Positions 25,987 to 55,090 are shown, numbered from the stretch's first letter. The stretch: DNA of 64,000 nucleotides from Bacteroidia bacterium (GCA_022072225.1 JAJVIC010000006.1:73785-137784); one strand, 5' to 3'. The notes: generated by a model from the sequence alone, not told the origin. Numbers and translations: made by a program.

Positions 25987-26426
25987 GAACCTGTAGTTTT
26001 GTCCTGAAGGTTCAAAAGCCAAAACATGAGGCATATCCGAAGGAATTAGAAACGATTGGAGACCATATCCGGGCAAAGCGAATGGATTTAGGGTTACTGC
26101 AAAAAGATGTGGCTAATATATTCAATGTTTGCGAAGCTACACTTACAGGGTGGGAATTGAATCGCTTTACCCCGACTCACAAATACTTTAAAAGCATAGT
26201 CACTTTTTTAGGGTATGTTCCCAAAGAATGGAGAGAAGGGTCACTCGGCACACGATTAAAGTATGCTCGTCTCTTATCTGGACTTACACAAGAACAATTG
26301 GCAAAAAGGGTTGGATGTGACGAATCAAACCTCCGGGTTATAGAACTAAACAAACGAACTCCCAGGAATGAAACCTTAATAAAAGTTACAGGGTTTATTC
26401 AGGATTCTTTTTTACTTAAAAAGTAA
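25974..26426 (+). CDS. Tandem HTH_XRE-domain protein
   Basis: Two HTH units (LGLLQKDVANIFNVCEATLTGWE and LTQEQLAKRVGCDESNLRVIE). 13-nt overlap with recombinase gene. Confidence 0.6.
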   Translation: MVALRTCSFVLKVQKPKHEAYPKELETIGDHIRAKRMDLGLLQKDVANIFNVCEATLTGWELNRFTPTHKYFKSIVTFLGYVPKEWREGSLGTRLKYARLLSGLTQEQLAKRVGCDESNLRVIELNKRTPRNETLIKVTGFIQDSFLLKK

Positions 26427-27346: not shown

Positions 27347-27877
27347 CTATTCGTTGTTCTTATTTTCACGTGTTTGTAAGAGTTTACCTTTCTCGTATGT
27401 TTCTTCTTTAATTATTACTCCAGTTTCGGAATAATATTTCCAAATACCGGTCTTTACAGCATTTTTATAAATTCCTTCAATTTGAATCTGACCATTATCG
27501 TAATAAAATATTGCCCCCCCTTCTTCATAACCATCTTTCCAAAAAGTTTTTTGGGATAACTTTCCATTTTCATAAAACCCTTTTGTTTCGCCATCTTGCT
27601 TACCATTTTGCATTTGAGAAATAGACATGGTATCCCCATCTTCATAATATTGAATAATTAGACCATTTATTTCTCCTTCTTTCCAATAGGTTTCATGTTT
27701 TTTCCCACCGCTCTTATAAAATCCTGTTTGGATTCCATTTAACTTTCCATTTTGATATTGTTTTATTTCGATTAAATGACCGTCAACATCATATTGTTTT
27801 ATTTCCCCGTCCTTAATTTTACAGGATAAAATAAAACACAAAAAACAGACATTTAGTATATAAAATTTTTTTCTCAT
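27347..27877 (-). CDS. MORN-variant (YwqK-like) repeat lipoprotein; candidate immunity protein
   Basis: Lipobox ILSC. Repeated G-x-Y/W-x-x-Y-Y/F-x-N-G units (GFYKSGGKKHETYWKEG, KGFYENGKLSQKTFWKDG, AIFYYDNGQ). Sits 2 nt downstream of the toxin-like gene. Confidence 0.6.
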   Translation of the reverse strand: MRKKFYILNVCFLCFILSCKIKDGEIKQYDVDGHLIEIKQYQNGKLNGIQTGFYKSGGKKHETYWKEGEINGLIIQYYEDGDTMSISQMQNGKQDGETKGFYENGKLSQKTFWKDGYEEGGAIFYYDNGQIQIEGIYKNAVKTGIWKYYSETGVIIKEETYEKGKLLQTRENKNNE

Positions 27878-27878
27878 A

Positions 27879-30038
27879 TTATTTTACAATTTCTTCTGTT
27901 GTATAAGTCTTTGATGATGTTTGACCTGTTGGTTGATTATTTTTATAGGTTTCTGTTGTTTCAGTTACTTGGAGACTTCTAAACTTTTCTACTTTATTGC
28001 CACCCCAAAATGTTTTAACATTTCTTGTTTGAATTTCTCCTTTCTGAATATCAAATTTGGTTACGCTATTTATGTTAAATTGGCTCTCATCATTTGGTCT
28101 TGTTAAATTAATTACTCTAGTTATATAGTTTTCTTCTACTGTTAATATATTATATTCATTTTGATTCATATAAAGCCACTCTGATTCAGCATAATTATCA
28201 TCTAAGAATGAGTATGTTCCTGTTCTTGCAGCTTCACCCCATGCTCCGTCATTGGGGGCACCAGATGTTAAACTTGCATATTCAGGTGTTGTCTTAAACA
28301 TACTTGCCAAAGCGCCTTTTGCACCATTTGATGTATGAGAAAGATTTGTTTCATGCCAATGTAATGTCTCAACATCCCAATCATATTCACCACCTTCATT
28401 TCTCGCTCTGGAGTTTCCATCCCAAGTATTTACAACATTATTAAGTAATTCTTCGTCAACAACAATTTTGATTCTATTCTTATCAAAATAATGAAAATTA
28501 TAAACGGCTGATCTATACAAATCAATTTTGAATGGCTTACCAGTTCTTGGGTCAATTGGCTCTTGTCCATCTTTATCAATAAACATAATGGGATTGTCAG
28601 CAAATGCTGCATATGGCGACCACATAGGATATTTTCTCTCTAACGGATCAACACTCATGAACCTTCCCAATCTCGCATCGTATATCCTTGCCCCAAAGTC
28701 ATACGCAAATGCCACAGGGTCGATCAATGATACGTTCTTTTTAGTGGTGTCTATTGCTGCAATAGTTTTGGTCTCCGTATCAAAAGTAAACTGCCCATAC
28801 TCTTCAAACTTTTGAGGATAGAAAACTTCCTGGAATAAGCCGCCTGTTAAAGAATAGAATTGATTGTATTCATCGGGTATTCCTTCAACAGTAAAAGGCT
28901 TTGGATTGCGGTCTGTAGGTTTCTCACCTTCTTTTGTTTGAAAACCATTTAATACCATTTCCTGGACATCCATTGGCATTTGTTTGTAGCCAAGGCGTTG
29001 CAAACGTGCGAGGTGGTTTTCCAATTCAACAAATGTTTTTTCTTTAGTGAGTTTACTAAGGTTTACTGTTTTATTGTCGCTAATTATTTTTAACATCCGT
29101 TCATTTAAAACCTGGTGTTTTAATAGCAACGCATTTAAGTTAAGGCTATCGTTTTGTAAAACAGTTTCGGCACATTGTAAAAGAAAATTATCGTCTTTAG
29201 TATTGAACTTATGTTCATACGCCTTGGCAAGATTTACCATGCACAAGCCAATGCTTTGTCTATTGTCATAACTGCGTAATGATATTCCGCTTTCAATGGC
29301 AGAACTTGTTGTATAGGTTAATGTTTGCAATATTCCATCGCCTGGATGTCCTGCGGTGGCAAGTTCAACATTATAATATTGTCCTTTTGTGTCGCGGTGT
29401 TGAATGTAAATGTGCTGCGGTGCGGTGCAAAGTTCCGCCCCTGTATTTAAGCGATCTGCCATTATTTTAAAGAATGCAGTTAAGGCAAAACAATTACCTG
29501 CTTGCTCTTTAGAATTAAGTAAATTCAGTAGTTGTGAATTACTCCAGTCTTTTATACCGAAAGGGTCCGCAGTTGAATAACTGAAAGGCAAATGAACGAG
29601 CGGATAAATACCTGTTGTATCTTCTATGTAAGTAAAAATAGCCCAATTATTAAGCGCATTTTTATAGAGTTCTTTTTTTCGTGTTGGTGAAATAGCAATT
29701 TCATTTATATCAAATCTTCCGTTTGCTTTTACCTTTGGAATGTAATTCATAGTGTCGCTGTAATCATTGGCGACTGCAAGGTTTTCAATAAAGGAAAGAT
29801 GAAAGTCTATGCTCTTTTGAAAAGTTTCATATCTGTATTGATTATTATGGAAAGGATTTTCGCTGATGAAAACGGCACGTTCAAAACTTGGAGTTTGTTT
29901 TCCTTCCATCATGTTTTTCAATTCAACAAAGGCAGAAGAAAAGTAATAGTACGTGCTGTCGTTTTTCTCGCTAGCGTGCAACGCAGCTGAGAATGCTGCG
30001 AATAGAACTGTGAGCAGCAAAAGGATTTTAGTTTTCAT
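27879..30038 (-). CDS. Secreted polymorphic-toxin-like protein: transglutaminase-like N-domain + RHS-core motif + unknown C-terminal domain
   Basis: Signal peptide. Cys/His region (EQAGNCFALTAFF...HIYIQH) paralogous to 30063..31571. RIYDARLGRFMSVDPL...SPYAAFADNPIMFIDKDGQEP matches the RHS-repeat-associated core terminus. ~220-aa C-terminal tail of unknown fold. Confidence 0.55.
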   Translation of the reverse strand: MKTKILLLLTVLFAAFSAALHASEKNDSTYYYFSSAFVELKNMMEGKQTPSFERAVFISENPFHNNQYRYETFQKSIDFHLSFIENLAVANDYSDTMNYIPKVKANGRFDINEIAISPTRKKELYKNALNNWAIFTYIEDTTGIYPLVHLPFSYSTADPFGIKDWSNSQLLNLLNSKEQAGNCFALTAFFKIMADRLNTGAELCTAPQHIYIQHRDTKGQYYNVELATAGHPGDGILQTLTYTTSSAIESGISLRSYDNRQSIGLCMVNLAKAYEHKFNTKDDNFLLQCAETVLQNDSLNLNALLLKHQVLNERMLKIISDNKTVNLSKLTKEKTFVELENHLARLQRLGYKQMPMDVQEMVLNGFQTKEGEKPTDRNPKPFTVEGIPDEYNQFYSLTGGLFQEVFYPQKFEEYGQFTFDTETKTIAAIDTTKKNVSLIDPVAFAYDFGARIYDARLGRFMSVDPLERKYPMWSPYAAFADNPIMFIDKDGQEPIDPRTGKPFKIDLYRSAVYNFHYFDKNRIKIVVDEELLNNVVNTWDGNSRARNEGGEYDWDVETLHWHETNLSHTSNGAKGALASMFKTTPEYASLTSGAPNDGAWGEAARTGTYSFLDDNYAESEWLYMNQNEYNILTVEENYITRVINLTRPNDESQFNINSVTKFDIQKGEIQTRNVKTFWGGNKVEKFRSLQVTETTETYKNNQPTGQTSSKTYTTEEIVK

Positions 30039-31641: not shown

Positions 31642-33375
31642 ATGTTTATGGAGCTATATAAAACAAAATCTTCTGACATTTATACTGAGTTTACTCATTG
31701 GGATCGTGCTATTGAGAATAGACTTTTTGAAGAGAATTGCAGGGTAATTAAGCTTGTATGTTTATATAAAGCAGTTTTTAGAAATTGTCATTTTGAAAAA
31801 GATACCCTTTTGGGCAATTGCACTTTTGAGAATGATGTCTTATTTAATACCTGCACATTCAGTGAAGAAATTGTTTTTAAGAATTCTGAATTTAAAAAAG
31901 GACTAAAATTTGAAAATTGTACATTTCAAAAGGAACTAGTATTTAATGATTGCACCGTCCATGATATTCTTTGTAAGAATAGTACTGGAAATGAAATTTA
32001 TTTCAGTGGCTATATAAAGAATAATGCGGTTAAGAATCACGAAATTATTTTTGATGATGTTACATTTGAAAAAATAAAGTTTGAACATATAGAACTATTT
32101 AAACCAATTAAATTCCTCTCAGTGGAATTTAAAGAAGTATGGTTTCATCATTGTCATGCAGAAGCACCTATGACATTTGGAGATAGTGAAAAGGACATTT
32201 ACTTTAAATCAAAAAAGATTGATGTTGAATCTTCAAAATTCTTCCATCGGATTGATTTCTTAAAAGGTGTAATTACTGAATTTGCACGTTTCCATAAGGT
32301 TGATTTCAATGAACAAGTAGTTTGGAGGGATACATTTCATACAAATAGTATAGAGCTTATGGAAGTTCGTGCTAAATATGATGTATGTCTTGACTTTAGA
32401 AACAATACAACACATTTATATTTTCAAAATTGTTGGTTTGATACAAGCTTTACTATATTTAATATAAATCCAGCATTGAATTCTATTGAAGATAGAGTAA
32501 CTGTTGATTTTTACGGCATCATTCATGGCAATTATATAATTGCTGATTTACCGACACTTTCAATTACTATTTCGTGTATAAATTTTGGAAATATTCTATT
32601 CAATAATGTTTCGACTAAACTAATTCACTTAAATAGATTCTATAATTACAACAAGCTATTTTTTAATAGCATCAAGCTTGACCCTACTTTTAATGTATTA
32701 ACGATAATCGATTCAAATATTAATAATACAGAATTTGAAAATATCGATTTCACAAAATTCAATGAAGTAGTGATAACTAAAAGTGATGTCAGCAGTATGC
32801 TATTGTCTAACTCGCTTTTTCCGAAGCAAATTCAGATTAAAACCAATAATCCTCAATTAGGCTACGGAATTGAAGTACAGGAAGAAGCTAATCGGAATAT
32901 GTACTTCAGAGAATCATATCGTCAATTAAAAATGGCAATGGAAAAATCAGGGAACCGTTACTACGCTCTGCTGTATAAATCCAAAGAAATGTATTATCAG
33001 AGAAAAGAATTTGGATGGGGATGGGATAAAATTCTGCTTACGCTTAATTATTTGACAAACAATAATGGGATAAGCTGGGGACGAGGAATTGTATTCACTC
33101 TACTTTGTGCATTAGGCTCTTTTTTTGCTTTAAACTCATTGATTAACGAACCTTATTTTTATTGGGGTTTCTCTTATTCAGGACTGGAAACTCTCCAAGC
33201 ATTTAAAATAGGATTTAAACAATATATAAACTATCTATCCTCTTATCCAAGATTAACAATAGATGAAGGAGTAACTTCTAACTGGAAAATAAACAGTGTT
33301 GTTTTATTGTCACGAATATTAGTGAGCATTGGAATATTTCAAACAATTTTTGCATTTAGAAAATATGGCAAGTAA
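31642..33375 (+). CDS. Pentapeptide-like repeat protein with C-terminal TM helices
   Basis: N-terminal tandem ~10-aa C/N-x-F repeats (NCHFEKDTLLGNCTFENDVLFNTCTFSEE...). 3-4 hydrophobic helices at the C-terminus. Confidence 0.5.
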   Translation: MFMELYKTKSSDIYTEFTHWDRAIENRLFEENCRVIKLVCLYKAVFRNCHFEKDTLLGNCTFENDVLFNTCTFSEEIVFKNSEFKKGLKFENCTFQKELVFNDCTVHDILCKNSTGNEIYFSGYIKNNAVKNHEIIFDDVTFEKIKFEHIELFKPIKFLSVEFKEVWFHHCHAEAPMTFGDSEKDIYFKSKKIDVESSKFFHRIDFLKGVITEFARFHKVDFNEQVVWRDTFHTNSIELMEVRAKYDVCLDFRNNTTHLYFQNCWFDTSFTIFNINPALNSIEDRVTVDFYGIIHGNYIIADLPTLSITISCINFGNILFNNVSTKLIHLNRFYNYNKLFFNSIKLDPTFNVLTIIDSNINNTEFENIDFTKFNEVVITKSDVSSMLLSNSLFPKQIQIKTNNPQLGYGIEVQEEANRNMYFRESYRQLKMAMEKSGNRYYALLYKSKEMYYQRKEFGWGWDKILLTLNYLTNNNGISWGRGIVFTLLCALGSFFALNSLINEPYFYWGFSYSGLETLQAFKIGFKQYINYLSSYPRLTIDEGVTSNWKINSVVLLSRILVSIGIFQTIFAFRKYGK

Positions 33376-33401: not shown

Positions 33402-34655
33402 CTATTCTACATTAAATCCAGCCTTCTTACTTAAGGATTTGAGAAAATTTTCAAATTCGGTTTCCCATAATTCTTCATGACTTTGCGTTTCCAAGGGAAC
33501 GGTCAATGACTTATTATCGGATTTGGCAGTTACTTGCCATTTCTGAATATTGGAATCGTTTTTATGTTTTAGTGGTTGCAATCGTAATTCAGAGTTTTTC
33601 CCGTTATATATACCTTGTAGTTTCTCCCAGATGTTATTCTCGGTTTTTAAAAGTGCTGCCATGGGACTATTATAGTGTTTTTGACTATATACGAATAAAA
33701 AATTCCTATTCTGAGAATGATCGATAACATTCACACTGAAAATTTCACTTTTAAATGAGATACGCCTCTTATTCCAGATTGCACTTCCTTCAAAATAAAA
33801 TTTGTAATACCCTGGAACAACAATCTTTGATAATTCCAACAGCAATGTTTCAGAAGTTTTTGGAAGTACTGAATATATTTTGGCATCAGGGAGTACTGCA
33901 ATGGATTTTCCAATTATTTCGCTGGGGTGAAAATATAACCGTGTCGGTTCATTAATGCCTCGGAGTGTATGTTGTCTGATAATTCGTTTTTGAGTGTTTT
34001 GAATATATTGTGTTGTGATGACGTTTAATGTAAGTACATCAAGTTTTTCGTTTGATTTATTCGTTAGTTGTAACCAAACCTGATACGAACTTTCGGTATG
34101 AGATTTTATGACCCGAGTATCGACTATAAAGTAATCATAGGCATTGGGTTTGGGTGAATCAAAAAAATCAAACCTTACTGCTTGAGGGGTATAAATATGT
34201 GGTTCCACTGGAGTTGAAATAACATAATCTTCCAGACCCAATTTTTGTAAGGCAGCTTTACTCTGAATAAATTTACTTTCTAAACTTTCTCCTATCCAAA
34301 GCTCTATTGCAAAAGGCACTTCTGTGTTTTCTAGGATGTGATGTAATTCATTGCTTAAATCAGTAGGACTGACAATCACGAACCGATCAATATCTTTTGC
34401 ATCATGCCATACGAGCTTTGAAGCTATGTCGGTAACGTTAAGCTTACGATTTAAGTTTTTACACTCAAATTTCCAGACTTCATATTGACCTAATTCATGC
34501 GAATATTTTCTTGCAGAAATATCATATCCGAATTGACTGCCCGCATTTTGCAAACGAACATTTTCAAACCCAATATCTTTCAATAATTCATATACAAGTT
34601 TTTCGAAATATTTTCCCTTATTGGGTAGCGACAATAGTTTCTCAATTATTTTCAT
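33402..34655 (-). CDS. Mrr-cat-like PD-(D/E)xK restriction-endonuclease-domain protein with ~300-aa unknown C-terminal domain
   Basis: GKYFEKLVYELLKDIGFENV...FGYDISA...WKFECK matches the Mrr N-terminal catalytic domain (D, E-x-K). Confidence 0.55.
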   Translation of the reverse strand: MKIIEKLLSLPNKGKYFEKLVYELLKDIGFENVRLQNAGSQFGYDISARKYSHELGQYEVWKFECKNLNRKLNVTDIASKLVWHDAKDIDRFVIVSPTDLSNELHHILENTEVPFAIELWIGESLESKFIQSKAALQKLGLEDYVISTPVEPHIYTPQAVRFDFFDSPKPNAYDYFIVDTRVIKSHTESSYQVWLQLTNKSNEKLDVLTLNVITTQYIQNTQKRIIRQHTLRGINEPTRLYFHPSEIIGKSIAVLPDAKIYSVLPKTSETLLLELSKIVVPGYYKFYFEGSAIWNKRRISFKSEIFSVNVIDHSQNRNFLFVYSQKHYNSPMAALLKTENNIWEKLQGIYNGKNSELRLQPLKHKNDSNIQKWQVTAKSDNKSLTVPLETQSHEELWETEFENFLKSLSKKAGFNVE

Positions 34656-34663
34656 TCACATCA

Positions 34664-37600
34664 CTATTTTTTATTTCTCCTCAAAGAATTTAAAATGGTA
34701 TTTGCCACTTGTTGCTGTGAATCGGAACTTGCTGTTCCCACATTTACTTTTATCCGATAACCTTTCACTATTTTTTCTTCCGGCTGCTTTTGAATTGTGC
34801 TTAAGAAGGTAAAGAGTTCTGCGGTTTGACAGCACACAATATTTTTCAGTTCTGTTTTACTGAAATGTGTTTCGCACAAAGTCTGTATTCTCCCTAAGTG
34901 TACTGTGTTCTCTGAACACACAAACACCTTTGAATATCCCGCATGGAAACATTTCTTAATATTTCCGACTTCGTATTCTTTCGTATTGGTAACTGCGATT
35001 TCACACGCTATTTTCAAATTGTCCTTTATTAACCCTACATCAACTCTGCCTTTGCCATCTGGTGTTGGTTCTTCAATCACTGCTTTAAATCCATATCCCT
35101 CTGCTATGCGTTTAATGAGTTCTTGCAAGTAGCGATGTTCTCGCATTTCACGTTTCTGTTCTTCTTTCTCGGTGAACTCTTTTCCTTTCTGCTGTATTGC
35201 TTCATCTGCCTCTTTAAACTCAGGTTGTGGTTGTTCTTTTGGCTGTTCAGGTTGTGGTTCTTGTTTAGCTTCTTGCTTTGGAATTTCTGTTTTTTCAGTC
35301 TCAGCTTTTCGTTCTGAAAATCGTAGTGACTGTGCTAAAAGTTCTTCAACTTCTTCTCGCGGTTTACCATAAGCACTTCGTGAAAGTATTGCTACTTTAT
35401 TCCGTACCAACTGTGCATACTTTTCGTTCTTTGCTTCAATGAAAGGAATTGCAATATTGAAATCATTGTCTTTGCGTTCAACTCGTACAATAGCTTGTCC
35501 GGTATTTAGATTCTGAATATCTGTTTCGTCAAAAGATGAAAAGCTGTTTGCAAGTTGTTTGGCATCTTCTTCACCGCATCTGAAGCATACGCGCGTTGCG
35601 GGATTTGAAAGCACTGAATTTGCAAGCTCTTTATCTAACGTTCGTAACTGTTCCAAATCCTGATGCGCCAAAACAAGCCCTAATCCATACTTCCGTGCCC
35701 CTGAAAGGATGGAGCTCATGGATGGTGTTATAAAATGTTGAAATTCGTCTATATAGAGAAAAAACGGTAAACGTGCCTCTTCCTTCATATTCTGCCTGTG
35801 AAGCGCTGCCTGGTGCAATTTTGCCACGATAATAGAGCCTAAGAGGTAGCTGTTATCCTCTCCGATTAGCCCTTGTGAGAGCTTTACTAAAAATATCTTC
35901 TTGGAATTTATGACATCATGAAAGTCTATCCCGCTTTTTTGGACCATCATATTGCGTACAATCCTCGGACGCAAAAAGGTATCAAGCCTTGTTAAGATTG
36001 GTGCAATGGAATTAGAGCGCAGAAGCGGGAATTCTTTTTTCCAGTAATACACAATATTGGGGTCGTTTACTTTCTGCAATGTTTTTGCACGAAAGGCATC
36101 ATCTGTCAGGAATTGGCGCAAATCCAGAAATGTTCCTCCATCTTCATGTTCTAAGAATGCAATTACTGCATTAGCCAAAACAGAAGTCATCTGATCGCCC
36201 CAACTAGTCGCAAACCGTTTAAACAGAGAAACAATATCTGAAGAAAGAATAATTTTTTCAGGTTCTGTTTTTGCAAATAATAAATTCAGTCCTACGGGGT
36301 AATCGGTATCAGATGGGTCAAGTAATACGACATCTTTAATTCTGTGTGCGGGAATATGCTCAATCGCTTTTTCTATTAAGTCACCATGCGGGTCAAGAAC
36401 GCAAAGTCCATTTCCTAATTGCATATCTTGAATAATGGATTGCAAAAGGAAATTTGATTTGCCCGTGCCCGTTGCTCCTATGACATGAGTGTGTCGCAAG
36501 CGTTGCTGAACTGAAAGTGCGGCTTTTCGTTCTTGCCCCAAATAGTTATTTAAGCCTAAAACAAAATCGTGATGCAATACTGCTTCTGGTGCTGGCTTTG
36601 TTTTTCCTTGGTAGGTGCGAAGTTTTGGCGCGGAAACAGTCATATCCGGTATATGCACAATGGACGCAAGCTCTCCCGCATTTAAAATCATTCCTGTTCT
36701 TCGGGACAAACGATTTTCAACATCTTCTAAAACACAGTCAATACTTTGAATGGGAACTGACGTAAAACTATTGCACCCTTGTCGGTGTAGTGCAGATAAA
36801 CTTTGCACTATCTCATTATTAAGCGACATAGCCTTGTCAACGGTATGGCTAATCGTCAGCACTCGAATAGTTGCAACGAATAAAGGCTTTGACACTTTTT
36901 CCTGAACCAGTTTCGCCATGTCAGGGTCATTCCTGAAAAAAGATTTTCCATGATGGTCTGTTGCAGCTCGCATCATACTTTGCGCCCATTGGTTTACTGT
37001 GCCTTTAAATAACACCTGCACAATAGCACGTTCATTTTTTTGTACTGTTCCTAAGACAGATAGGCAGCCCGCTAATGGGTCGGGACTAAACTTGTCATAG
37101 CATTTGATGGGTCTCATGAATTCCTGGGCAAGTCCAAGTTCATGGATGGCAAACCCCATATGGTCTTCCACATTTTGAAGGAGCATATTTTCAAATTCTG
37201 AAACAACAACGGTCGGCAAATATTCTTCGACATAGCTGCGGACTATTGAAACGTCTTGTGCATCACAGCTTAATTGAATTTGAATCTTGTCATGGTGTCC
37301 AACAATTTCAAACGAAAGAGTATTTCTCGTGTTTGATAGCAACACTAATAACTGTTCAATAAAGCCTAATTCAATACGCGTATCTTTTTGAAACGAAAAA
37401 TGAAGTTCACGAATACGAGGTCTTTCGTCTATGACATTGTATGCATTGATAGGATATAACTCTTGGAGATATTGAACGGCCTCTTCTGTCTGCGGCTGTT
37501 CTTTTTCTTTTGTTCCAAAGAGTGTAGAGAATGCATCAACAACGGTTGGGAAAAATCGCGGTCGTACACCATCATCAATTGTGGTTTGATATTGTGGTGG

Positions 37601-37735
37601 TAAATGACCAAAAAAGGGAATGAATTCAGGCTCTAACTCAACGGGGTCTTGAAACACATTCCATCCTCGTCCACGCTGTTCCCACGTGTAAAATTGGGCG
37701 GTGTAAAATTCTTCAAGCGAATATCCGTTATGCAT
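34664..37735 (-). CDS. HerA/TraD-FtsK-like ATPase fused to C-terminal Mrr-cat-like PD-(D/E)xK domain (1023 aa)
   Basis: Walker A GATGTGKSNF, VLDPHGD, Walker B FFLYIDEFQHF, VLAHQ. Acidic E/Q/P-rich linker, then ELIKRIAEGYGFKAV...GRVDVGL...IACEIAV. No TM helix. Confidence 0.6.
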   Translation of the reverse strand: MHNGYSLEEFYTAQFYTWEQRGRGWNVFQDPVELEPEFIPFFGHLPPQYQTTIDDGVRPRFFPTVVDAFSTLFGTKEKEQPQTEEAVQYLQELYPINAYNVIDERPRIRELHFSFQKDTRIELGFIEQLLVLLSNTRNTLSFEIVGHHDKIQIQLSCDAQDVSIVRSYVEEYLPTVVVSEFENMLLQNVEDHMGFAIHELGLAQEFMRPIKCYDKFSPDPLAGCLSVLGTVQKNERAIVQVLFKGTVNQWAQSMMRAATDHHGKSFFRNDPDMAKLVQEKVSKPLFVATIRVLTISHTVDKAMSLNNEIVQSLSALHRQGCNSFTSVPIQSIDCVLEDVENRLSRRTGMILNAGELASIVHIPDMTVSAPKLRTYQGKTKPAPEAVLHHDFVLGLNNYLGQERKAALSVQQRLRHTHVIGATGTGKSNFLLQSIIQDMQLGNGLCVLDPHGDLIEKAIEHIPAHRIKDVVLLDPSDTDYPVGLNLLFAKTEPEKIILSSDIVSLFKRFATSWGDQMTSVLANAVIAFLEHEDGGTFLDLRQFLTDDAFRAKTLQKVNDPNIVYYWKKEFPLLRSNSIAPILTRLDTFLRPRIVRNMMVQKSGIDFHDVINSKKIFLVKLSQGLIGEDNSYLLGSIIVAKLHQAALHRQNMKEEARLPFFLYIDEFQHFITPSMSSILSGARKYGLGLVLAHQDLEQLRTLDKELANSVLSNPATRVCFRCGEEDAKQLANSFSSFDETDIQNLNTGQAIVRVERKDNDFNIAIPFIEAKNEKYAQLVRNKVAILSRSAYGKPREEVEELLAQSLRFSERKAETEKTEIPKQEAKQEPQPEQPKEQPQPEFKEADEAIQQKGKEFTEKEEQKREMREHRYLQELIKRIAEGYGFKAVIEEPTPDGKGRVDVGLIKDNLKIACEIAVTNTKEYEVGNIKKCFHAGYSKVFVCSENTVHLGRIQTLCETHFSKTELKNIVCCQTAELFTFLSTIQKQPEEKIVKGYRIKVNVGTASSDSQQQVANTILNSLRRNKK

Positions 37736-38216
37736 TCATCGGAGTGGTGTTTGGTTTCCGCTCAAATTCAGACAGTGATTTAATTCCTTTCGGTTGGGTA
37801 ATGGTATCTATGACATTCAAGATACTTTGATGCACACTGGAACGGAACATGGTTGCAGTATCAATGACATAGTAGGGTTTGTATTGCATACGCTCTACAA
37901 TCTTTTCTCCGATGTATGGAATCTTAATTAATAGCTCTTGCCAAAAACTGATTTTTTCTCTCAGCCACCATGAAACAAAAAAGCCGGTGCCAAATGGTGC
38001 TGCACAAATATGAAAGATGTAATCCTTTCGCTTTACTTCAAAGTAGAGTCGGTTCTTCGACATTAATCCACCTTCACTGAGTGTAAGGGTTTTCATCTTG
38101 ACATCTGGCAACTGTCTGCGCGTTATTTCTGCTTCGACATTTTTGTAAAAATCTTTTGCTGAAAATTGGAAATCATCAAAGAGATGATTCCAGTTGGAAG
38201 TAGCGACTGAACTCAT
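37728..38216 (-). CDS. Hypothetical protein (162 aa), operon partner of the ATPase
   Basis: 8-nt overlap with the ATPase gene start. Confidence 0.4.
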   Translation of the reverse strand: MSSVATSNWNHLFDDFQFSAKDFYKNVEAEITRRQLPDVKMKTLTLSEGGLMSKNRLYFEVKRKDYIFHICAAPFGTGFFVSWWLREKISFWQELLIKIPYIGEKIVERMQYKPYYVIDTATMFRSSVHQSILNVIDTITQPKGIKSLSEFERKPNTTPMNA

Positions 38217-38268
38217 GGTTAAAGATTTTGGTTTTATATACTAATTAAAAAAGTTTTACCATTAAAAT

Positions 38269-38481
38269 TTAAAGTTCCTCACACTTAAACCCTGCCTTCT
38301 GCAATGCTTCAATGACTTGAAAGGGTGTAAACCCGGAACCTACAACTCGCAGAGTAAAATTCTCATCCTTAAAATCAATATCCCAATTAAATATTTTTTC
38401 TTGAAACTCTTTAAAACAATTTTCTACTTTCTGTTTATCAGTTACCTTCGTTATATTAGTTTTAAAAAGTAGAATTTTCAT
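38269..38481 (-). CDS. Small hypothetical protein (70 aa)
   Basis: First ORF of the minus-strand gene string 38481->33402. Confidence 0.35.
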   Translation of the reverse strand: MKILLFKTNITKVTDKQKVENCFKEFQEKIFNWDIDFKDENFTLRVVGSGFTPFQVIEALQKAGFKCEEL

Positions 38482-38533: not shown

Positions 38534-40348
38534 TTATGCTGGTATAGCTACTGCATTCTTTTTCCAGATTACATCAATCTCGCCAATAAGAAAATTTGTT
38601 CTTGCTTCAATTTTATGCTCATCCCAAACGATATCGCCCTCATCAAAGGGTTTCACTAAATCAAGTTTCGTAATTATTAATTCAGCATAGTCTTTTATTC
38701 CTTTTTTTCTGCCTTCTCCTACCATTTTGACTTCATACTTATAATTTTTAAGTGCAGAATTTAAATTTGTCGTTAGCAGAGTCATGTTTCCAATCCAATA
38801 GATTTTTGCCCAGCGGTCTTCAGCCGACTCTTTTTCTGACATAAGAGAACCATCAGGCTTGGTTTTTACCGGTAATGTGCCCCAATGCTCAGTCCAACTC
38901 TGTGGCATAATGTGCTCTAACGAATAGCAGTATTTTAAAGCCGTAGTATCATTCTTTTTATCATTATGTCTTCTATGAAGCTCGACCCAAAATAATAAAA
39001 GTGCTGCGTGACGATTCGAAATATACTTTAGCTGATTGTAAAAATCAGCATCATTACTTTCGGCTAAACGTGCATAAAGAGCGTTGGGATTTGTAATAAA
39101 CTCTTTACAAAATTTATTAAAAGCTTTTACTTCGTGTTTTGAAATAACGCGTCTTACTACAAAACTTTCAATGGCGGAAAACACTTTCTCTAATTGGGCT
39201 TCATCGTCACGCAAGCTTTTAAACAGATGTAATATCAATGGATGAAACGTTGAAATTTCAAAGCAATCCAAAATATGGAATAGTCGCTTCTGATATTCAT
39301 CAAAAGAGAACATTGTTTGATTGGTAAATATTAAAAATTTCTTCTTGTAAATGTCTGCGTATTCGGTAATATCCTCAATAAATTTCTTAATCTGATCAAA
39401 CGTTGTAAAATTTGCAATGTGCTCTTTATACAGCCAAGATAAATCTGACAGTGTATGCTCGTCAGGGTCGTAAATTCCTTTGATAACAGCTACCGAGTGA
39501 AGTAGGAGTTCAATATTATCTCTTCGCAAGCGTCCAGTTGAGCGTTGTGTTTCCCAAAAAGTAACATTCTCTTTTTCCCCGGTAATAATTTTATTCCAGG
39601 TCGCACTATATAATTTGATAGCTTCTTTTTGACCCTTCAGTTGGATTACCTTTTGAAAAAGAGCATTTTTTATAATATCAGCGGCACTCAAATGAACTCC
39701 TGCGCTGTTAATGGTATCGAATATAGCTTGCTCCTCGTCTTTCGCCCCTAAATCAATGACAACTAGAATTTCATTTTCGCTTTTTGTGAGCCAATTAAAA
39801 AGCGCCATATTTTCTTTCGAATCTTTTTTCTCAAGTTCATTTAAAAAATATTGATAGCATTGCATAACTCTGCTATCACTATCATTGGGAATTACCAATG
39901 GTGAACTATCTATTCCTGCTCGTATAACGGATTCATATACCTGTGCATCCAAATGCGAATGTTGAATCTTAATAAGATAATTTTCATCCGTTTCATCTAT
40001 TTTATAAAACAGACAATTTCTCATTGAGTTTTCTACATTTTTCTTAGTCGCATCCGGTAATGAATCGTATAAAGCTTTGAGTAGAATACTTAATGTGGTT
40101 AAACGTTGTTGTCCATCAATAATAAGAGCTTCTTTAGGTTCACCCGTTGCAACTGTTTGCTGTTTTAAAATGATTGAGCCTAAAAAGTGATTTTTACTGG
40201 TGTTGGAAAGTTCGATAAGTAAGTCTTCCCAATTATCTTTTTTCCAAACATAAGCTCTTTGAAAAAATGGTACACGAATTAGTGCTTCCATTTTAAGAAA
40301 CGTAAAGGCTCTCGATTTTGCTTCCATCGTGTAAGTATTTGAAAGCAA
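38534..40348 (-). CDS. GmrSD-family type IV restriction-like protein (DUF262 + DUF1524)
   Basis: N-terminal FFQRAYVWKKDNW and IIDGQQRLTTL (DGQQR, DUF262). C-terminal YSLEHIMPQSW His-Me finger (DUF1524). Confidence 0.75.
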   Translation of the reverse strand: MLSNTYTMEAKSRAFTFLKMEALIRVPFFQRAYVWKKDNWEDLLIELSNTSKNHFLGSIILKQQTVATGEPKEALIIDGQQRLTTLSILLKALYDSLPDATKKNVENSMRNCLFYKIDETDENYLIKIQHSHLDAQVYESVIRAGIDSSPLVIPNDSDSRVMQCYQYFLNELEKKDSKENMALFNWLTKSENEILVVIDLGAKDEEQAIFDTINSAGVHLSAADIIKNALFQKVIQLKGQKEAIKLYSATWNKIITGEKENVTFWETQRSTGRLRRDNIELLLHSVAVIKGIYDPDEHTLSDLSWLYKEHIANFTTFDQIKKFIEDITEYADIYKKKFLIFTNQTMFSFDEYQKRLFHILDCFEISTFHPLILHLFKSLRDDEAQLEKVFSAIESFVVRRVISKHEVKAFNKFCKEFITNPNALYARLAESNDADFYNQLKYISNRHAALLLFWVELHRRHNDKKNDTTALKYCYSLEHIMPQSWTEHWGTLPVKTKPDGSLMSEKESAEDRWAKIYWIGNMTLLTTNLNSALKNYKYEVKMVGEGRKKGIKDYAELIITKLDLVKPFDEGDIVWDEHKIEARTNFLIGEIDVIWKKNAVAIPA

Positions 40349-40420: not shown

Positions 40421-42451
40421 ATGGAAATATTATTCTTATGGATTAATAATTTTAATAACATCAAAGAGCAAGGATTTCAATTTGGAGGTAAGTATTTTAT
40501 TACTTATGATAAGAATAATCATGCACTTTATTTTAATAAAAATCCAAAATACATTGAAGGTTTTTTTAAAAATATTACTAATGACGCAAGTGATGGTGTT
40601 ATAAATAGCGTCTCAGCTTTAGTTGGTTCAAATGGTAGTGGGAAAAGCAGTGTAGTTCAATTTTTAGCAGGACAATTAATGGCTGGCCATATAATGGGTA
40701 GCAATAAATTACCGCTAAAAGATAACGGATTAATTGTAGTTGAAAGAGAAAATGAATTTCTCATTTATGATAACGATGAAGATGAGAAATTTATACACAA
40801 GCCTTTTAATCAAGATTCAGGTTTTACTGTTGATATTATTAAAGCTAACAAGAGAAAAACATACCCGCATGGAAATAGACTATATCATGAATTAATTGGC
40901 ATTTATTATTCTGATAGTTGGCATGATAATGTTGTTAAAACTATCGGTTCAGAGTCTGATTTAATCAACCTCTCAAGTAGTACATTATATTATAAAAGCC
41001 ACACTCCTATAGAACATGATTTAAAGAGAAAAAATAACTATACGACAGTATATTACCCTGATAAGCATATTAGTGATGATGTTAGAAGACAAATTGTTTT
41101 CATTAATGAGAAACATGAAGTAGTAAAGAAACTTGGTATAAAAATTCCATCTCACATTAATATTTTTATTCGGCAAGAATATACTATGGGTGGTGGAAGT
41201 AAAAACCCAAGAATAAAAGAGGATTCGGAAAAATTTCAAAAAACATTTCGATTAGTTTATCAAGCATATACCCCACAAAATGATATTGATTTTATTAGAT
41301 TGTTTTTCCTATCGGCATCCTTGGCTTTTTATGTTTATCCTTCCAAAAAATTTATTGAAAGGATAAACGAAAGATATAATGAATTTAATGTAGAAAATTT
41401 AGAATATGATTTTAAGCTTCTCACAGAAAAGTCTGCTACTCCGTTTGATTTAGCATATAAATTTTTATCATATCCTTTTTTTGAAATTCCAAAGGAAGCT
41501 GTAAAATTAAGAGAAGAGGATGAGCCTGTTGTTTCAGTTGATTTTAAAGTTCCAGAAACTATTTCTTACCTCAAATTCATAGATGAAAACTTCACAATAT
41601 CAAACATAAATCTACAGAAGTATAAAGAATCTATATTGGAGGATTTTCTGACAAATGGTGGCTTAAAAGAAAATCGTCAACTGAGTTTTAATCCATTTCA
41701 TTTTTATCTTAATTCTAACTATGGATATGAGTTTCTAAATAAATATCTCCATCACTTATTTAATGAAGTTGCAATAGATTATTTAGAGTTTAATCCATTA
41801 GAATTAAGTTCAGGGGAAATCGCGTTTCTGAATATTCTCTCAAGAATAAACTGTATTGGGAAAGAGGAAGTAAATAATTACAACAGATTCAAGTATATGA
41901 AATATACAGGTGCGAAAAATATTTTATTCTTTATTGATGAAGGAGAGGCACACTTTCACCCTCAGTGGCAAAAGAAATTTTTAGAACTATTGTTGAATGT
42001 ATTACCTGGGATGTTTCAAAATAAAACTATTCAACTTATTCTCACTTCGCATTCACCTTTATTTTTATCCGACCTTCCTCGTGAGAATATTAATTTTCTT
42101 AAACGCAATGAAGTTAAAGGAGTATGTGAGGTCTCAGATTTAGAAAGCAGAAAAGACACTTTAGGTGCAAATATTCACACTTTACTTGCAGATAGTTTCT
42201 TTATTCAAGGTGGACTCATTGGAGACTTTGCAAAAAATAAAATTAATGAAGTAATAGAACTATTGCAGGATGGTCCCACTGAGAAAATTTACGGTAAAAA
42301 AGAAGAGATAAAAAAAATTATACGAATGATTGGTGAACCAATTATTCGGAACAAACTGACACAACTTTTGAATGAGAGAATAGATGTAGATGAACGAATA
42401 AATGATTTACAGCGACAATTAGATAAACTGAAGAATAAGAAAAATGATTAG
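40421..42451 (+). CDS. ptuA: PtuA-like (Septu) ABC/AAA_21-type ATPase, full length
   Basis: Walker A VGSNGSGKSS, Walker B ILFFIDEGEAHFHP, LTSHSPLF. 676 aa. Confidence 0.6.
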   Translation: MEILFLWINNFNNIKEQGFQFGGKYFITYDKNNHALYFNKNPKYIEGFFKNITNDASDGVINSVSALVGSNGSGKSSVVQFLAGQLMAGHIMGSNKLPLKDNGLIVVERENEFLIYDNDEDEKFIHKPFNQDSGFTVDIIKANKRKTYPHGNRLYHELIGIYYSDSWHDNVVKTIGSESDLINLSSSTLYYKSHTPIEHDLKRKNNYTTVYYPDKHISDDVRRQIVFINEKHEVVKKLGIKIPSHINIFIRQEYTMGGGSKNPRIKEDSEKFQKTFRLVYQAYTPQNDIDFIRLFFLSASLAFYVYPSKKFIERINERYNEFNVENLEYDFKLLTEKSATPFDLAYKFLSYPFFEIPKEAVKLREEDEPVVSVDFKVPETISYLKFIDENFTISNINLQKYKESILEDFLTNGGLKENRQLSFNPFHFYLNSNYGYEFLNKYLHHLFNEVAIDYLEFNPLELSSGEIAFLNILSRINCIGKEEVNNYNRFKYMKYTGAKNILFFIDEGEAHFHPQWQKKFLELLLNVLPGMFQNKTIQLILTSHSPLFLSDLPRENINFLKRNEVKGVCEVSDLESRKDTLGANIHTLLADSFFIQGGLIGDFAKNKINEVIELLQDGPTEKIYGKKEEIKKIIRMIGEPIIRNKLTQLLNERIDVDERINDLQRQLDKLKNKKND

Positions 42452-43418
42452 GATTAAACGAGATAACCTCAACACTTTAGCTAGGCAGCACTATAAAAAT
42501 GTTGAGTCTTTTTCTCCTAAACTTACAGAAAGGCTGGAAGAAAGGTCTAGAAAACCTGGAGTACTACAAAGTTTCTATAAGCAGCTATTTAAGGATGTAA
42601 AACTTAAAAACAGCGAATCTTTACTAATCTCAACTCCTGAAAAATTAGAAGAGAAGATAAAAGAATACACAAATACATTTGGATTTGATTTTTCAAAAAA
42701 CATACACAAGACACTTAGACGGGAATTGCAAAGGGTGTTTGATTATAGTGGTTATGCAAAAGAATATGGATATTGGCTTGCAAAAGAATTGAAAGTAAAT
42801 GTTTGCCCATATTGTAACCGGCAATACACCTTTACAGTTAGTCGTGGAAGAAATAAAATAGTTCGACCTGAATTTGATCATTTTTATAACAAAAAAACTT
42901 ACCCATATTTATCACTTTCATTTTACAATCTTATTCCATCATGTTCAATTTGTAATCGTCTTAAAGGCTTTCAAAATTTCAACATCAAAAAGAATATTCA
43001 TCCTTATTTGAGCGGCTTTAATCCTATTGCAAAGTTTAAAACTAAGTTAAACGGCATAGAAGCAATTTGGGGTGATTCGGATAAAATAGAATTATTGTTA
43101 AACACTGGAGGAAATCCATTGGTTAAAAAAAATGCTAAAACTTTCAAATTAAAAGAATTATATAATGGGTACGGAACAATAAGAAAAAACGATGTTTCCG
43201 GACACAGAGATTATGTAATTGAAATCATACAAAAAAGACTCATTTATAACAGTAGCTATATTGATGAATTATTCGAAACATATCAGGGTATATTCTTTAA
43301 AACAAGAGAAGATGCAGTAAGGTTAGTATTGTCTAATTATGTTACAGAAGATGGATTAGAAAAAAGGGTTCTTTCTAAACTTACAAAGGATATAAGCGAA
43401 GAATGGGGCCTATTATAA
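42444..43418 (+). CDS. ptuB: PtuB-like HNH endonuclease
   Basis: CPYCNRQYT...EFDHFYNKK...CSICNRLKG. 8-nt overlap with ptuA-like gene. Confidence 0.6.
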   Translation: MIRIKRDNLNTLARQHYKNVESFSPKLTERLEERSRKPGVLQSFYKQLFKDVKLKNSESLLISTPEKLEEKIKEYTNTFGFDFSKNIHKTLRRELQRVFDYSGYAKEYGYWLAKELKVNVCPYCNRQYTFTVSRGRNKIVRPEFDHFYNKKTYPYLSLSFYNLIPSCSICNRLKGFQNFNIKKNIHPYLSGFNPIAKFKTKLNGIEAIWGDSDKIELLLNTGGNPLVKKNAKTFKLKELYNGYGTIRKNDVSGHRDYVIEIIQKRLIYNSSYIDELFETYQGIFFKTREDAVRLVLSNYVTEDGLEKRVLSKLTKDISEEWGLL

Positions 43419-43514
43419 TTAGGCTATTAAAAGAAATATTCAATTTGGTTCCGTTTGCGAACAAATTCCCTCACAATCATTAAATAAAAGAGTATTGATA
43501 AAATAAAACGAAGT

Positions 43515-45278
43515 CTACCTACTTCCGTCATATGTATATGATAATGTTTGTAAATGTCCAGTCGTTGCATATGGTCTACCTCTCTGAGTAGTTCGACCTG
43601 TTTCAGATATTAAATAAAGATTGTTTTTTGCTCGTGAACAAATAACATATAATAGCTTTTTGGCTGTACTTTGAGCATCTTCTTCATTCCAGTTAGGTAT
43701 ATAGCCATGCAATAATCCAAATGCAATAACTGTTTGAAATTCTTCTCCTTTAATTCCGTGGCAAGTATTTACTACAACGCCTGAATTATGTGAAAATAAT
43801 CTCTTGAAACTTTTTACATCTGTAGCATAATCAAATTCACGATTTTCTAATCTCTTTTTTGCTCCTTCAAAAAATGAATCCCAATGCAATTTCAAATACT
43901 CATTTTCTTCAACCTTGATTTTTAAATTTTCACAAGCTTTTGAAAAACATTCATGAAGAAATTCCAATCCATTAACCCGATCAGATTTAATAGCATTAAG
44001 CGATTTTAAAAGGCTTCGAGTTCTTCTTTCATCATCTGGAAAAAGATGTACACCAATACCATCAAGCTCATTTAATAATTCAGCAGCCCATCTTGTTCTT
44101 GTATGATACATATTAGGAGCAGGGTCAACTAAAAATAAACGTGCAAATTTATACCACGTATTTTCTCTATTGCGTATTAGGGGTGAAAGTCCAGGCGCGT
44201 CAAAGTTCACGGATGGCAATAATTTTTTTAGCTTTCTACCCATTGGGATAATTAACCACCATTGCGGGGCTAAAACACATATTTCATGCTCAGGAACACC
44301 TTTTGCAATATTTTCTTGGATTAATGAAGCAATTGTTTCATCAAGGACATCTTTATGCACCTCTTGATTGGAAAAGCTTATTAAACCTCGCTCATCAGAA
44401 TATTTACAAAGAGATTTGATGTCAATATTTGTAGATTGAAAGTTTCGGTAGTAGTCTATTATTCGTTGATTACTTCTGTAATTACCTGACAATTCTTTCT
44501 CCCGCATTTCAATATTTCCAAATTGCGCTTTTATCTCATTTAAAGATTTTGCAACACCGCCCAGTGATACATATATTGCTTGATCTTTGTCTCCTACTAT
44601 AAATAACAGTGTTTTACCATTTTGAGCCTTAATTATTTTAGATAATATGGCGTATTGCAGTTCCTGGGTGTCTTGATATTCATCCACGCATATTAAATGG
44701 AAAATGTTATTTAAAGTTTTTGCAATTTTTGGATAATTATCAAGTAAGGCATATGCAAAATAAAGCATTTGATCAAAGTCAATAAGCTTGTGGGTTTTCA
44801 ATATACTATGGTATTCCTTAACTAAATCGATATTCGTAATTTCTGCTAATGAACCATCTGCATTTATTCGGGTTAGGATTCTTGTATACCAAGGCAGACT
44901 ATACTTCTCTTTTAAAGCCGAAATAATTTCTTCTGATCTATGTTCATCAGCGATAACAAAACCGTTTTTTAGTTCATCCAAATAACCTTTATAAGGGCGG
45001 AGTATCCAGTCTAAGCAAAAAGAGTGAATTGTGCCTGCCCAAAGTTGGGCTTTAGGCTCAACGTTCATTCTGCTTATTCTTTCCTTTATCTCATCTGCTG
45101 CACGATTAGTAAAAGTTAATGCAACAATTGTTTTTTTACTCTCTTCAATTTTTTTAAGTTCATGAGCAATTTTAAAAGTAAGTACACGAGTTTTGCCACT
45201 GCCGGGACATGCAGTAATCAAAACATGTCCCGACTCAATCACTGCTGCTTTCTGTTGTTCACTTAAACTTCTAAGCAC
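43515..45278 (-). CDS. gajB: GajB-like UvrD/PcrA-family helicase
   Basis: Motif I CPGSGKT, Ia TFTNRAADEI, II VDEYQDTQ, III VGDKDQAIY. 8-nt overlap with upstream OLD-family ATPase gene. Confidence 0.7.
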   Translation of the reverse strand: MLRSLSEQQKAAVIESGHVLITACPGSGKTRVLTFKIAHELKKIEESKKTIVALTFTNRAADEIKERISRMNVEPKAQLWAGTIHSFCLDWILRPYKGYLDELKNGFVIADEHRSEEIISALKEKYSLPWYTRILTRINADGSLAEITNIDLVKEYHSILKTHKLIDFDQMLYFAYALLDNYPKIAKTLNNIFHLICVDEYQDTQELQYAILSKIIKAQNGKTLLFIVGDKDQAIYVSLGGVAKSLNEIKAQFGNIEMREKELSGNYRSNQRIIDYYRNFQSTNIDIKSLCKYSDERGLISFSNQEVHKDVLDETIASLIQENIAKGVPEHEICVLAPQWWLIIPMGRKLKKLLPSVNFDAPGLSPLIRNRENTWYKFARLFLVDPAPNMYHTRTRWAAELLNELDGIGVHLFPDDERRTRSLLKSLNAIKSDRVNGLEFLHECFSKACENLKIKVEENEYLKLHWDSFFEGAKKRLENREFDYATDVKSFKRLFSHNSGVVVNTCHGIKGEEFQTVIAFGLLHGYIPNWNEEDAQSTAKKLLYVICSRAKNNLYLISETGRTTQRGRPYATTGHLQTLSYTYDGSR

Positions 45279-47411: not shown

Positions 47412-47624
47412 TTATGTATTAGGAGTATTTTTTGTTTCCATCTGCTTGATAATATTGTTTACCTCCTGTTCTGTAGAACGTAGCTTTGACTGACAAAATG
47501 TTATGAGTTCAGAAGCTCGTTTAACTTTTTCTGCAAGAACATCAACTGACACAGATTCTGATTCAATTTCAGAAGCAATTTTTTTTAATTCCGCATATGC
47601 TGCTTCATAGGTTATATTCTCCAT
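47412..47624 (-). CDS. xseB: Exodeoxyribonuclease VII small subunit
   Basis: YEAAYAELKKIASEIESESVSVDVLAEKVKRASELITFCQSKLRSTEQEV matches XseB helical hairpin consensus. Confidence 0.75.
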   Translation of the reverse strand: MENITYEAAYAELKKIASEIESESVSVDVLAEKVKRASELITFCQSKLRSTEQEVNNIIKQMETKNTPNT

Positions 47625-49065: not shown

Positions 49066-49120
49066 TTAAAATTGAACACATTACTTATAAAACCAATATG
49101 TTACGAGTTATAAATTATAA

Positions 49121-49157
49121 ATAAAAAACACCATTTCAAAAAATGAAATGGTGTTTT
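49121..49157 (-). terminator. Rho-independent terminator after element-B MTase operon
   Basis: AAAACACCATTTC-aaaaaat-GAAATGGTGTTTT hairpin followed on the minus strand by a T-run. Confidence 0.6.
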
Positions 49158-49162
49158 AGTTT

Positions 49163-49813: not shown

Positions 49814-49834
49814 AAATGTTCATGGTGATTACTT

Positions 49835-50371: not shown

Positions 50372-50372
50372 T

Positions 50373-51155: not shown

Positions 51156-51233
51156 GGCTCTTTGATTTTGTAATGAACTATTTTCAAAGAGTATAGACCT
51201 GATAACAAACAGTAAACAGAAGTCAAAATATGC

Positions 51234-52397: not shown

Positions 52398-52465
52398 TAC
52401 TCCATTATCCTAAACTGGAGAAATGGAAATAGAATGCAATTTTTGCCAAATGTGATAGGATTAAA

Positions 52466-54459: not shown

Positions 54460-54570
54460 TCATAAACTGTAGCGGCATATACTTTCAAAAAACAGAAGCA
54501 AAAAATTGCCAATTGAAGAGTCAAATAATCGCTTCTGTTTATTCTTTTTTCATCCAAGGATAATTGCTGG

Positions 54571-55071: not shown

Positions 55072-55090
55072 TTGGTTGTTGAAAATCTGT

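Follow-up and report, generated by a model that had tools for sequence, protein, structure and literature searches.

The closest described relatives of the proteins reported here are the type IV coupling proteins (VirD4/TrwB/TraD), the DptH/DndH and Mad8 ATPases, the HerA-nuclease pairs (HerA-NurA, SIR2-HerA/Nezha, and DUF4297-HerA), and the mobilization modules of integrative mobilizable elements. Such a module consists of an integrase, a relaxase, in some cases a coupling protein, and an oriT, and it is mobilized by the T4SS (type IV secretion system) of a helper. Type IV coupling proteins combine an FtsK/HerA-superfamily P-loop ATPase, into which an all-alpha domain is inserted, with an N-terminal transmembrane (TM) anchor in the same polypeptide, and their genes are linked to those of a relaxase and of a T4SS or mating-pair formation apparatus. 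In the supplement of a preprint, the components required for MADS (mad1-8) include the Mad6 kinase, the DptG-like Mad7, Mad8, and methyltransferase (MTase) and specificity subunits. We analyzed a stretch of 64,000 nucleotides from a Bacteroidia bacterium (GCA_022072225.1 JAJVIC010000006.1:73785-137784; hereafter, the window), in which an earlier note had pointed to four tightly packed genes, here called p70, p162, p1023, and p417 after the lengths of their products in amino acids (aa), as a candidate undescribed defense operon. As regards anatomy and inheritance, we are highly confident that two of these genes, p162 and p1023 (DUF8128-ATPase-nuclease), form a module that is a stable part of the backbone in a widespread family of integrative elements of the large serine recombinase (LSR) type. 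As regards function, we tentatively favor a role in DNA processing and translocation for the mobility of the element itself. The architecture combines known parts, but neither it nor its association with an LSR has a description in the libraries and literature searched.

p1023 is a ring-type ATPase of the FtsK/HerA superfamily and of the coupling-protein/DptH class. It shares with type IV coupling proteins the P-loop, the Walker A and B motifs, and the inserted all-alpha domain, and the closest relatives of its ATPase by sequence are coupling proteins (DotL, TrwB, SXT TraD, and the CD1115 family). However, the TM anchor is absent from p1023 and, if there is one, would be supplied by the separate p162; moreover, p1023 differs in its fused C-terminal PD-(D/E)xK domain, its obligatory p162 partner, and its residence in LSR-type integrative elements. 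The coupling-protein models of NCBIfam scored far below their cutoffs (SXT_TraD, 48 bits versus 366; conju_CD1115, 48 versus 250; TraD_Ftype, 23 versus 521). p1023 is not a standard coupling protein embedded among transfer genes: no T4SS or relaxase gene was found in any neighborhood, and no full-length match was detected on 72,556 plasmids (PLSDB) or in 50,697 phages.

The structural likeness to DptH/DndH is confined to the ATPase domain of p1023. PADLOC matches to DndH were weak (~2e-5) and lay in the C-terminal ATPase, the DptH/DndH profiles extend over more than 1,300 to 1,700 positions with other N-terminal regions, and no DptF/DptG-like gene neighbors p1023. As far as these tools show, neither the DptH/DndH nor the Mad8 systems have DUF8128, p162, or a fused PD-(D/E)xK domain. 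Membership in MADS was considered and rejected, as the mad8 match reflects only a shared HerA/DptH-type ATPase core and Mad6, Mad7, the MTase, and the specificity subunits are absent nearby. The HerA models also scored far below their cutoffs (helicase_HerA, 17 bits versus a cutoff of 970; HerA_antiphage, 11.9 versus 800), and NCBIfam matches to VirD4 were likewise subthreshold. Unlike the HerA-nuclease pairs, p1023 carries its nuclease in cis; this nuclease has a PD-(D/E)xK fold and is not of the NurA, SIR2, or DUF4297 type, the N-terminal domain is DUF8128, the partner is p162, and no gene for a NurA, SIR2, or DUF4297 partner adjoins in the window. The module resembles those of integrative mobilizable elements in that a site-specific recombinase and a coupling-type ATPase stand at the end of an element with variable cargo, and ArdC, RadC, and orphan MTases likewise occur in its Bacteroidota versions. 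In contrast to such elements, it comes without a canonical relaxase (HUH, Rep_trans, or similar), and the fused PD-(D/E)xK domain is the only candidate DNA-processing activity. The earlier note had recognized no named system in this architecture, and PADLOC v2, Pfam, and NCBIfam also assign p1023 to none. PADLOC v2 called no system and returned only single-domain partial matches (mad8, DndH, and HerA for p1023; PDC-M58A and LmuA for the N terminus of p417; none for p162). Together, these comparisons indicate that the module is not a canonical type IV coupling protein, MADS, Dpt, or HerA system.

In the p1023 protein, DUF8128 comes first, followed by an ATPase of the TraD/HerA class, a linker rich in acidic residues, and a nuclease-fold domain (Table 1). 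The earlier note had given this layout correctly, with the N-terminal part as a unique region, and the family is conserved over its whole length. All of the motifs quoted in that note were found in the translations: GATGTGKS (aa 420), DPHGD (448), IDEFQHF (662), LAHQ (689), GYGF (880), GRVDVGL (896), and CEIAV (911) in p1023, and FEKLVYELLKDIGF (17), GYDIS (43), and FECK (63) in p417. In the ATPase, the Walker A motif GATGTGKS occupies residues 420 to 427, the Walker B motif YIDEFQ residues 661 to 666, and the all-alpha insert residues ~491 to 610. Pfam matched TrwB_AAD_bind (aa 408 to 732) together with TraG-D_C and DUF87, so that the core spans aa 408 to 737. The AlphaFold2 model had a predicted local distance difference test score of 80 to 90 over the DUF8128 region and below 50 over the linker; the N-terminal residues 1 to 60, although conserved, were modeled with low confidence. 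Comparison of the DUF8128 domain with solved structures gave no match. A full-length p1023 profile searched against the PDB aligned only over the ATPase region (residues ~386 to 797) and over neither the DUF8128 nor the nuclease domain; likewise, a profile search of the PDB returned nothing for the C-terminal domain.

The C-terminal domain has the restriction-endonuclease fold, with an alpha-beta-beta-beta-alpha-beta core, conserved acidic residues, and a lysine; E888, D899, E912, and K928 are invariant. It resembles restriction and defense nucleases, including Upx, FokI, Can2, and McrC, and the nuclease looks catalytically intact. The earlier note had read this domain as Mrr-cat and had counted two such domains, one each in p1023 and p417. 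The fold assignment holds, but the family assignment does not: the Mrr_cat profile (PF04471) matched neither p1023 nor 14 isolated C-terminal domains, even at an E value of ≤5, and HHalign gave a probability of 0.3% between the p1023 domain and the p417 family profile. The C-terminal domain is thus not detectably a member of the Mrr_cat family.

The second gene of the module, p162, is found wherever the upstream sequence allows a judgment. We examined 47 loci of the full-length clade, of which those with at least 500 nt of upstream sequence were informative. In all of these (~35 loci), a p162 homologue lies directly upstream of the ATPase gene, typically overlapping it or a few nucleotides away. 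The overlap is 8 nt in the window, exactly as first reported, and also 8 nt in the locus of the closest relative (L177, 81% identity), where the other neighbors are unrelated. The p162 family comprises 1,478 clusters at 50% identity and has an invariant CAAPFGTGFFVSWWL-type motif. No match was found for p162 in Pfam, NCBIfam, or PADLOC, and its profile retrieved only hydrophobic segments of G-protein-coupled receptors from the PDB. Among the top 149 family representatives, 85% have at least one TM-like segment and 63% at least two. Conversely, no TM-like segment was detected in p1023 or in 113 of 120 relatives. Since the ATPase lacks such segments, p162 is predicted to be, in all likelihood, a membrane anchor, adaptor, or sensor. 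In seven family members (P0257, P0260, P0261, P0278, P0287, P0306, and P0333), the p162 domain is preceded by a signal peptide, by extracytoplasmic domains that are SH3b-like or otherwise beta-rich, and by a TM helix. These fusions suggest that in some lineages the protein acts as a transmembrane sensor or anchor.

The other two genes do not share this conservation. As the earlier note stated, the four open reading frames (ORFs) are codirectional and have the lengths given above, all being on the minus strand; 52 nt separate p70 from p162 and likewise p70 from the GmrSD gene, and p1023 and p417 are separated by 8 nt (34656-34663), not 9. The note had taken them as one defense operon, with a motor and two Mrr-cat nucleases. 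The codirectional packing (gaps of 52, -8, and 8 nt) favors such an operon, as do the genuine Mrr_cat domain of p417 (Pfam, aa 14 to 125, 32.3 bits versus a cutoff of 21, E value of 1.2e-7) with its intact D...ExK signature, in which D45, E64, and K66 (E64-x-K66) are invariant in the family alignment, and a second p417 copy (POELPBGB_01352, 95% identical) beside the p1023 paralogue _01353 on the same contig. However, neither p417 nor p70 has a homologue in any of ~177 fetched loci, including the 81%-identical relative, and only p162 and p1023 recur. Searching 5.8 billion proteins yielded 10 relatives of p417; its distant relatives occur away from p1023-like genes, one of them beside an N6_N4 MTase. 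The two nuclease domains are unrelated at the profile level. Furthermore, the p417 copies beside the two p1023 paralogues are 95% identical while the p1023 copies are only 64% identical, a mosaic from which separate histories of p417 and p1023 follow. We therefore consider a four-gene defense operon very improbable. Because p417 and p70 are not conserved with p162 and p1023, the unit consists of the latter pair and not of all four genes; p417 and p70 have been added to the module locally, and p417 is probably an independent restriction-type gene that is adjacent here but is not a conserved partner. For p70, only subthreshold profile matches were obtained. Whatever the function of the module, the correct experimental unit is p162 plus p1023 (34664-38216) rather than the four-gene block.

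Three p1023 paralogues (POELPBGB_01342, _01353, and _01395, with 56%, 64%, and 100% identity, respectively) occur within ~55 genes on one 337-kb contig of a metagenome-assembled genome, the position of _01353 being deduced from locus tags only. Recombination or diversifying selection is a possible cause of the paralogue and p417 mosaic.

The strongest and most consistent association of the module is with a single type of LSR at the ends of integrative elements, not with defense islands. An LSR was present within the fetched flank in 22 of 42 loci. A same-strand LSR gene lies downstream of p1023 at a distance of ≤2 kb in 16 loci and of ≤7 kb in 4 more, with gaps as short as 0 to 94 nt. Past the LSR, the sequence continues with housekeeping genes or a truncated comM; upstream of the trio, gene content varies (insertion sequence transposase, glycosyltransferases, HsdM, and a WYL regulator). 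The typical arrangement is a terminal operon, p162 to p1023 to LSR, beside the attachment site, often in comM. The truncated fragments of ComM (Mg-chelatase-like) abut the recombinase or a helix-turn-helix (HTH) gene at the element edges (Table 1), which identifies comM as a recurrent integration target of this element family. The LSRs adjacent to p1023 form one family (41 to 89% identity), and their pairwise divergence follows that of the ATPase (Pearson, 0.90; Spearman, 0.84; Mantel P value of ~0.0005; n = 11) in a comparison that ignores host phylogeny. A census of 150 neighbors was led by recombinases, HTH proteins, comM fragments, MTases, and RadC, and PADLOC matches were sporadic. The Bacteroidota elements share ArdC, RadC, orphan MTases, and a paralogous coupling-type ATPase of ~390 aa that is 36 to 38% identical to the p1023 core. 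A general tie of these short ATPases to LSRs was considered and dropped, as only the window, L017, and L176 had an LSR next to such an ATPase.

The window itself contains three LSRs. One of them, LSR508, is an orthologue of the recombinases that directly follow p1023 in other phyla: compared with each of the p1023-adjacent LSRs, it has 44 to 53% identity across 94% of its length, whereas the other two are unrelated (~22% identity). LSR508 is the probable integrase of the element carrying the p162/p1023 module, whose predicted junctions are to the left of 24460 and, on the right, near 56145. Housekeeping-type genes lie to its left, and homologues of the HTH_3 regulator that overlaps its stop codon stand at element edges beside comM fragments in two loci (L002 and L177). 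No comM fragment was detected in the window by tblastn. The GC content of p1023 (0.40 to 0.41) is like that of the backbone and LSR regions, compared to 0.28 to 0.34 in the AT-rich defense cargo; the LSR508 element carries the GmrSD, Septu, and Gabija genes around the module as cargo.

On these grounds, we favor, tentatively and short of an even chance, the view that p162 and p1023 serve the mobility of their own element. Several results lead to this view: p162 stands upstream in all of the informative loci and a same-strand LSR adjoins; the ATPase and the LSR codiverge, and the LSRs, including LSR508, are of a single family with housekeeping genes or comM past them; the ATPase has its sequence affinity with coupling proteins, and a Bacillus plasmid homologue (see below) is next to a relaxase; and the GC content of p1023 is backbone-like, the neighbor census is led by recombinases, and p162 would provide the anchor that p1023 lacks. 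According to this model, LSR-mediated excision would come first. A p1023 hexamer, tethered or regulated by p162, would then form and load on the element DNA, the C-terminal nuclease would nick or cut, and the motor would pump. Such a combined coupling protein and DNA-processing nuclease would serve the horizontal transfer or the postexcision handling of its own element, probably exploiting the transfer channel of a helper for export. A mobility module of this kind would explain how islands without conjugation genes carry defense cargo between genomes, and it would name accessory factors for a class of recombinases that is relevant to genome engineering.

A number of observations weigh against this model. 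Neither a T4SS nor a canonical relaxase was found in the window, in the annotated relatives, or in the Pfam census of 150 neighbors, so that transfer would rely on an unseen helper. TM segments are absent from the window p162, which is without the TM insert present in most family members, and from ~30% of its close relatives; this fits poorly with docking at a secretion channel. In 3 of the 42 loci, the recombinase is a tyrosine integrase instead of an LSR, and in 17 no recombinase lies within the fetched flank; moreover, the codivergence is subject to the restriction given above. The best structural match of the p1023 ATPase is the defense protein DptH, tied with VirB4 and TrwB, and the top-scoring profile is PADLOC mad8 (2.9e-18, ATPase only). 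The PD-(D/E)xK fold cannot be told apart from those of restriction or defense nucleases, and the divergent paralogues (64% and 56%) and the p417 mosaic resemble the diversification of conflict genes.

Several of these points fit a different function, namely, a two-gene motor-nuclease system for defense, or for exclusion of other mobile genetic elements, that is carried by the element. In such a system, p162 would be a membrane sensor or adaptor, and the p1023 hexamer would load on, translocate, and cleave foreign DNA by means of its PD-(D/E)xK domain. The similarity of the ATPase to DptH and Mad8 and the defense-type nuclease with its catalytic residues kept are consistent with it, as are the sensor-like extracytoplasmic domains fused to p162 and the divergent paralogues on one contig. 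The pair is located among GmrSD, Septu, and Gabija genes in the window and among SIR2-HerA, Thoeris, and Qat genes in other Bacteroidota loci, a WYL regulator is near the module in one locus (L011), and the family is nearly absent from viral contigs and phage genomes (only 2 full-length matches among 2.9 million viral contigs). Against this, the pair behaves as backbone and not as swappable cargo, being co-oriented and codiverging with one LSR family across phyla; outside the Bacteroidota, known defense genes are rarely its immediate neighbors, PADLOC calls no system, and the wider DUF8128-ATPase family includes a housekeeping clade of Patescibacteria as well as true plasmid coupling proteins. 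The available evidence does not support p162 and p1023 as a proven new antiphage operon, and we regard a defense role as possible, only slightly less probable than the mobility role. If it were correct, the two genes would make up a new defense system in which a motor-nuclease is paired with a membrane sensor.

The wider family is large. Homologues ~1,000 aa in length number more than 1,900, and in most of them the N-terminal domain is PF26449 (DUF8128); reference genomes contain at least 600 loci. Members occur in Bacteroidota, Acidobacteriota, Verrucomicrobiota, Planctomycetota, and Actinomycetota and also in archaeal bins. Their current annotation goes no further than [quoted passage not shown] or DUF8128; in the literature searched, we found no description of the DUF8128/PF26449 family. 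The DUF87 coupling ATPase of a pLS20-type conjugative plasmid of Bacillus aligns by BLASTP to aa 200 to 752 of p1023, including part of DUF8128. Its gene is directly upstream of the relaxase and Tcp/VirB4 genes, and this homologue is therefore a genuine coupling protein; p1023 has its nuclease domain fused where the plasmid has its relaxase gene. Distant homologues annotated as hypothetical were also seen in SPO1-like and other large Bacillus phages (CP-51, JL, Shanette, CampHawk, and 0305phi8-36; H26 to H35), covering aa ~223 to 796 with 22 to 23% identity (E values of ~1e-19 to 1e-23).

A subfamily of ~780 to 860 aa in Patescibacteria/candidate phyla radiation bacteria (107 loci, L022 to L083 and L111 to L163) combines DUF8128 and the ATPase with an N-terminal TM helix and has neither the nuclease domain nor p162. 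It is found in housekeeping synteny with NrdR, ribonucleotide reductase, DnaX, and, in 28 of the 107 loci, a nearby XerC-like recombinase, and it may be an FtsK-like or DNA uptake translocase of reduced genomes. This subfamily bears on a further explanation, in which p162 and p1023 are an accessory of the recombinase comparable to FtsK in the FtsK/Xer system. LSRs require element-specific directionality factors, and none is recognizable in elements with the p162-p1023-LSR arrangement. The membrane-tethered translocase and p162 would control LSR directionality, synapsis, or multimer resolution; alternatively, they would handle the replication or segregation of the excised circle and not DNA export. 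The tight operon with codivergence of its members and the TM-anchored Patescibacteria proteins with their Xer neighbors argue for such a role. On the other hand, a nuclease domain would be unexpected in a protein that activates recombination, the closeness to Xer genes in Patescibacteria may be mere conserved synteny, the LSR is kilobases away and sometimes on the opposite strand in Bacteroidota, including the window, and tyrosine integrases replace it in some loci. We consider this explanation unlikely. The same low expectation applies to p162/p1023 as a dedicated LSR accessory in a broader sense, a membrane-tethered translocase-nuclease that would couple excision to processing or export or would set directionality in the manner of FtsK/XerCD. 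If true, an LSR accessory machine would define a mechanism by which genomic islands of a widespread class move without a relaxase and without T4SS genes.

Coordinates of the module, its domains, and the surrounding genes are collected in Table 1. Pfam confirmed the flanking genes reported in the earlier note (pentapeptide-repeat, GmrSD, Septu-like, and Gabija-like). A scan for sigma-70 promoters and terminators gave fewer matches than shuffled sequence, Bacteroidota promoters being outside the models of that scan.

Table 1. Features of the window, and ComM fragments in related loci (positions in the respective locus)
Feature	Position	Strand	Remarks
p162	37728-38216	-	162 aa; small partner protein, obligatory upstream gene of the module
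p1023	34664-37735	-	1023 aa; DUF8128, coupling-protein/HerA/DptH-class ATPase, acidic linker, PD-(D/E)xK nuclease domain
DUF8128 alpha/beta domain of p1023	36701-37423	-	aa ~105-345; PF26449 precomputed for homologues
P-loop ATPase core of p1023	35426-36568	-	aa ~390-770
Acidic/proline-rich disordered linker of p1023	35183-35320	-	aa ~806-851; composition from translation
C-terminal PD-(D/E)xK domain of p1023	34736-35158	-	aa ~860-1000
LSR508, large serine recombinase	24460-25986	+	Resolvase and Recombinase domains
HTH_3 regulator	25974-26426	+	150 aa; overlaps LSR508 stop
p417	33402-34655	-	417 aa; Mrr_cat nuclease and ~300 aa of unknown sequence
p70	38269-38481	-	70 aa; orphan small ORF between GmrSD and p162
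Pentapeptide-repeat protein	31642-33375	+	Pfam
GmrSD_N/C gene	38534-40348	-	Pfam
Septu-like AAA_21 and HNH pair	40421-43418		Pfam
Gabija-like OLD/TOPRIM and UvrD pair	43515-47409		Pfam
ComM fragment, L088	14604-15680		
ComM fragment, L176	21884-22942		
ComM fragment, L002	14506-14904		
ComM fragment, L177	22852-end		

The window also holds two related copies of a mobile backbone, which are 85 to 93% identical at the DNA level (2-2164 versus 41258-43420, 6251-9880 versus 49111-52736, and 11608-13264 versus 54488-56145). Each copy comprises an N6_N4 MTase, RadC, an N6 MTase, a 387-aa TrwB-like ATPase, a serine recombinase of ~572 aa, and RepO-like genes; a Septu-like pair lies ahead of each copy. 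Divergence is much higher in the interior of the recombinase (69% over 10884-11328, with 48% identity between the proteins). Between the shared parts, one copy has a gene for a 1361-aa protein as its cargo, and the other has Gabija with an exonuclease VII large-subunit-like gene. The former ORF (2188-6273, minus strand) has no Pfam match and occupies the slot held by Gabija in the other copy, which makes it a candidate uncharacterized defense gene. The latter encodes a 387-aa protein of the Exonuc_VII_L family (47605-48768, minus strand; E value of 1e-63) and lies between Gabija and the backbone, an unusual place for an XseA-like gene. Finally, the minus strand of 27347-30038 encodes a 719-aa protein in which a signal peptide-like N terminus is combined with a core-end motif of the Rhs/YD type (DPLERKYPMWSPYAAFADNPIMFIDKDGQEP). 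A 176-aa MORN-repeat protein comes next, and the two look like a polymorphic toxin/immunity pair.

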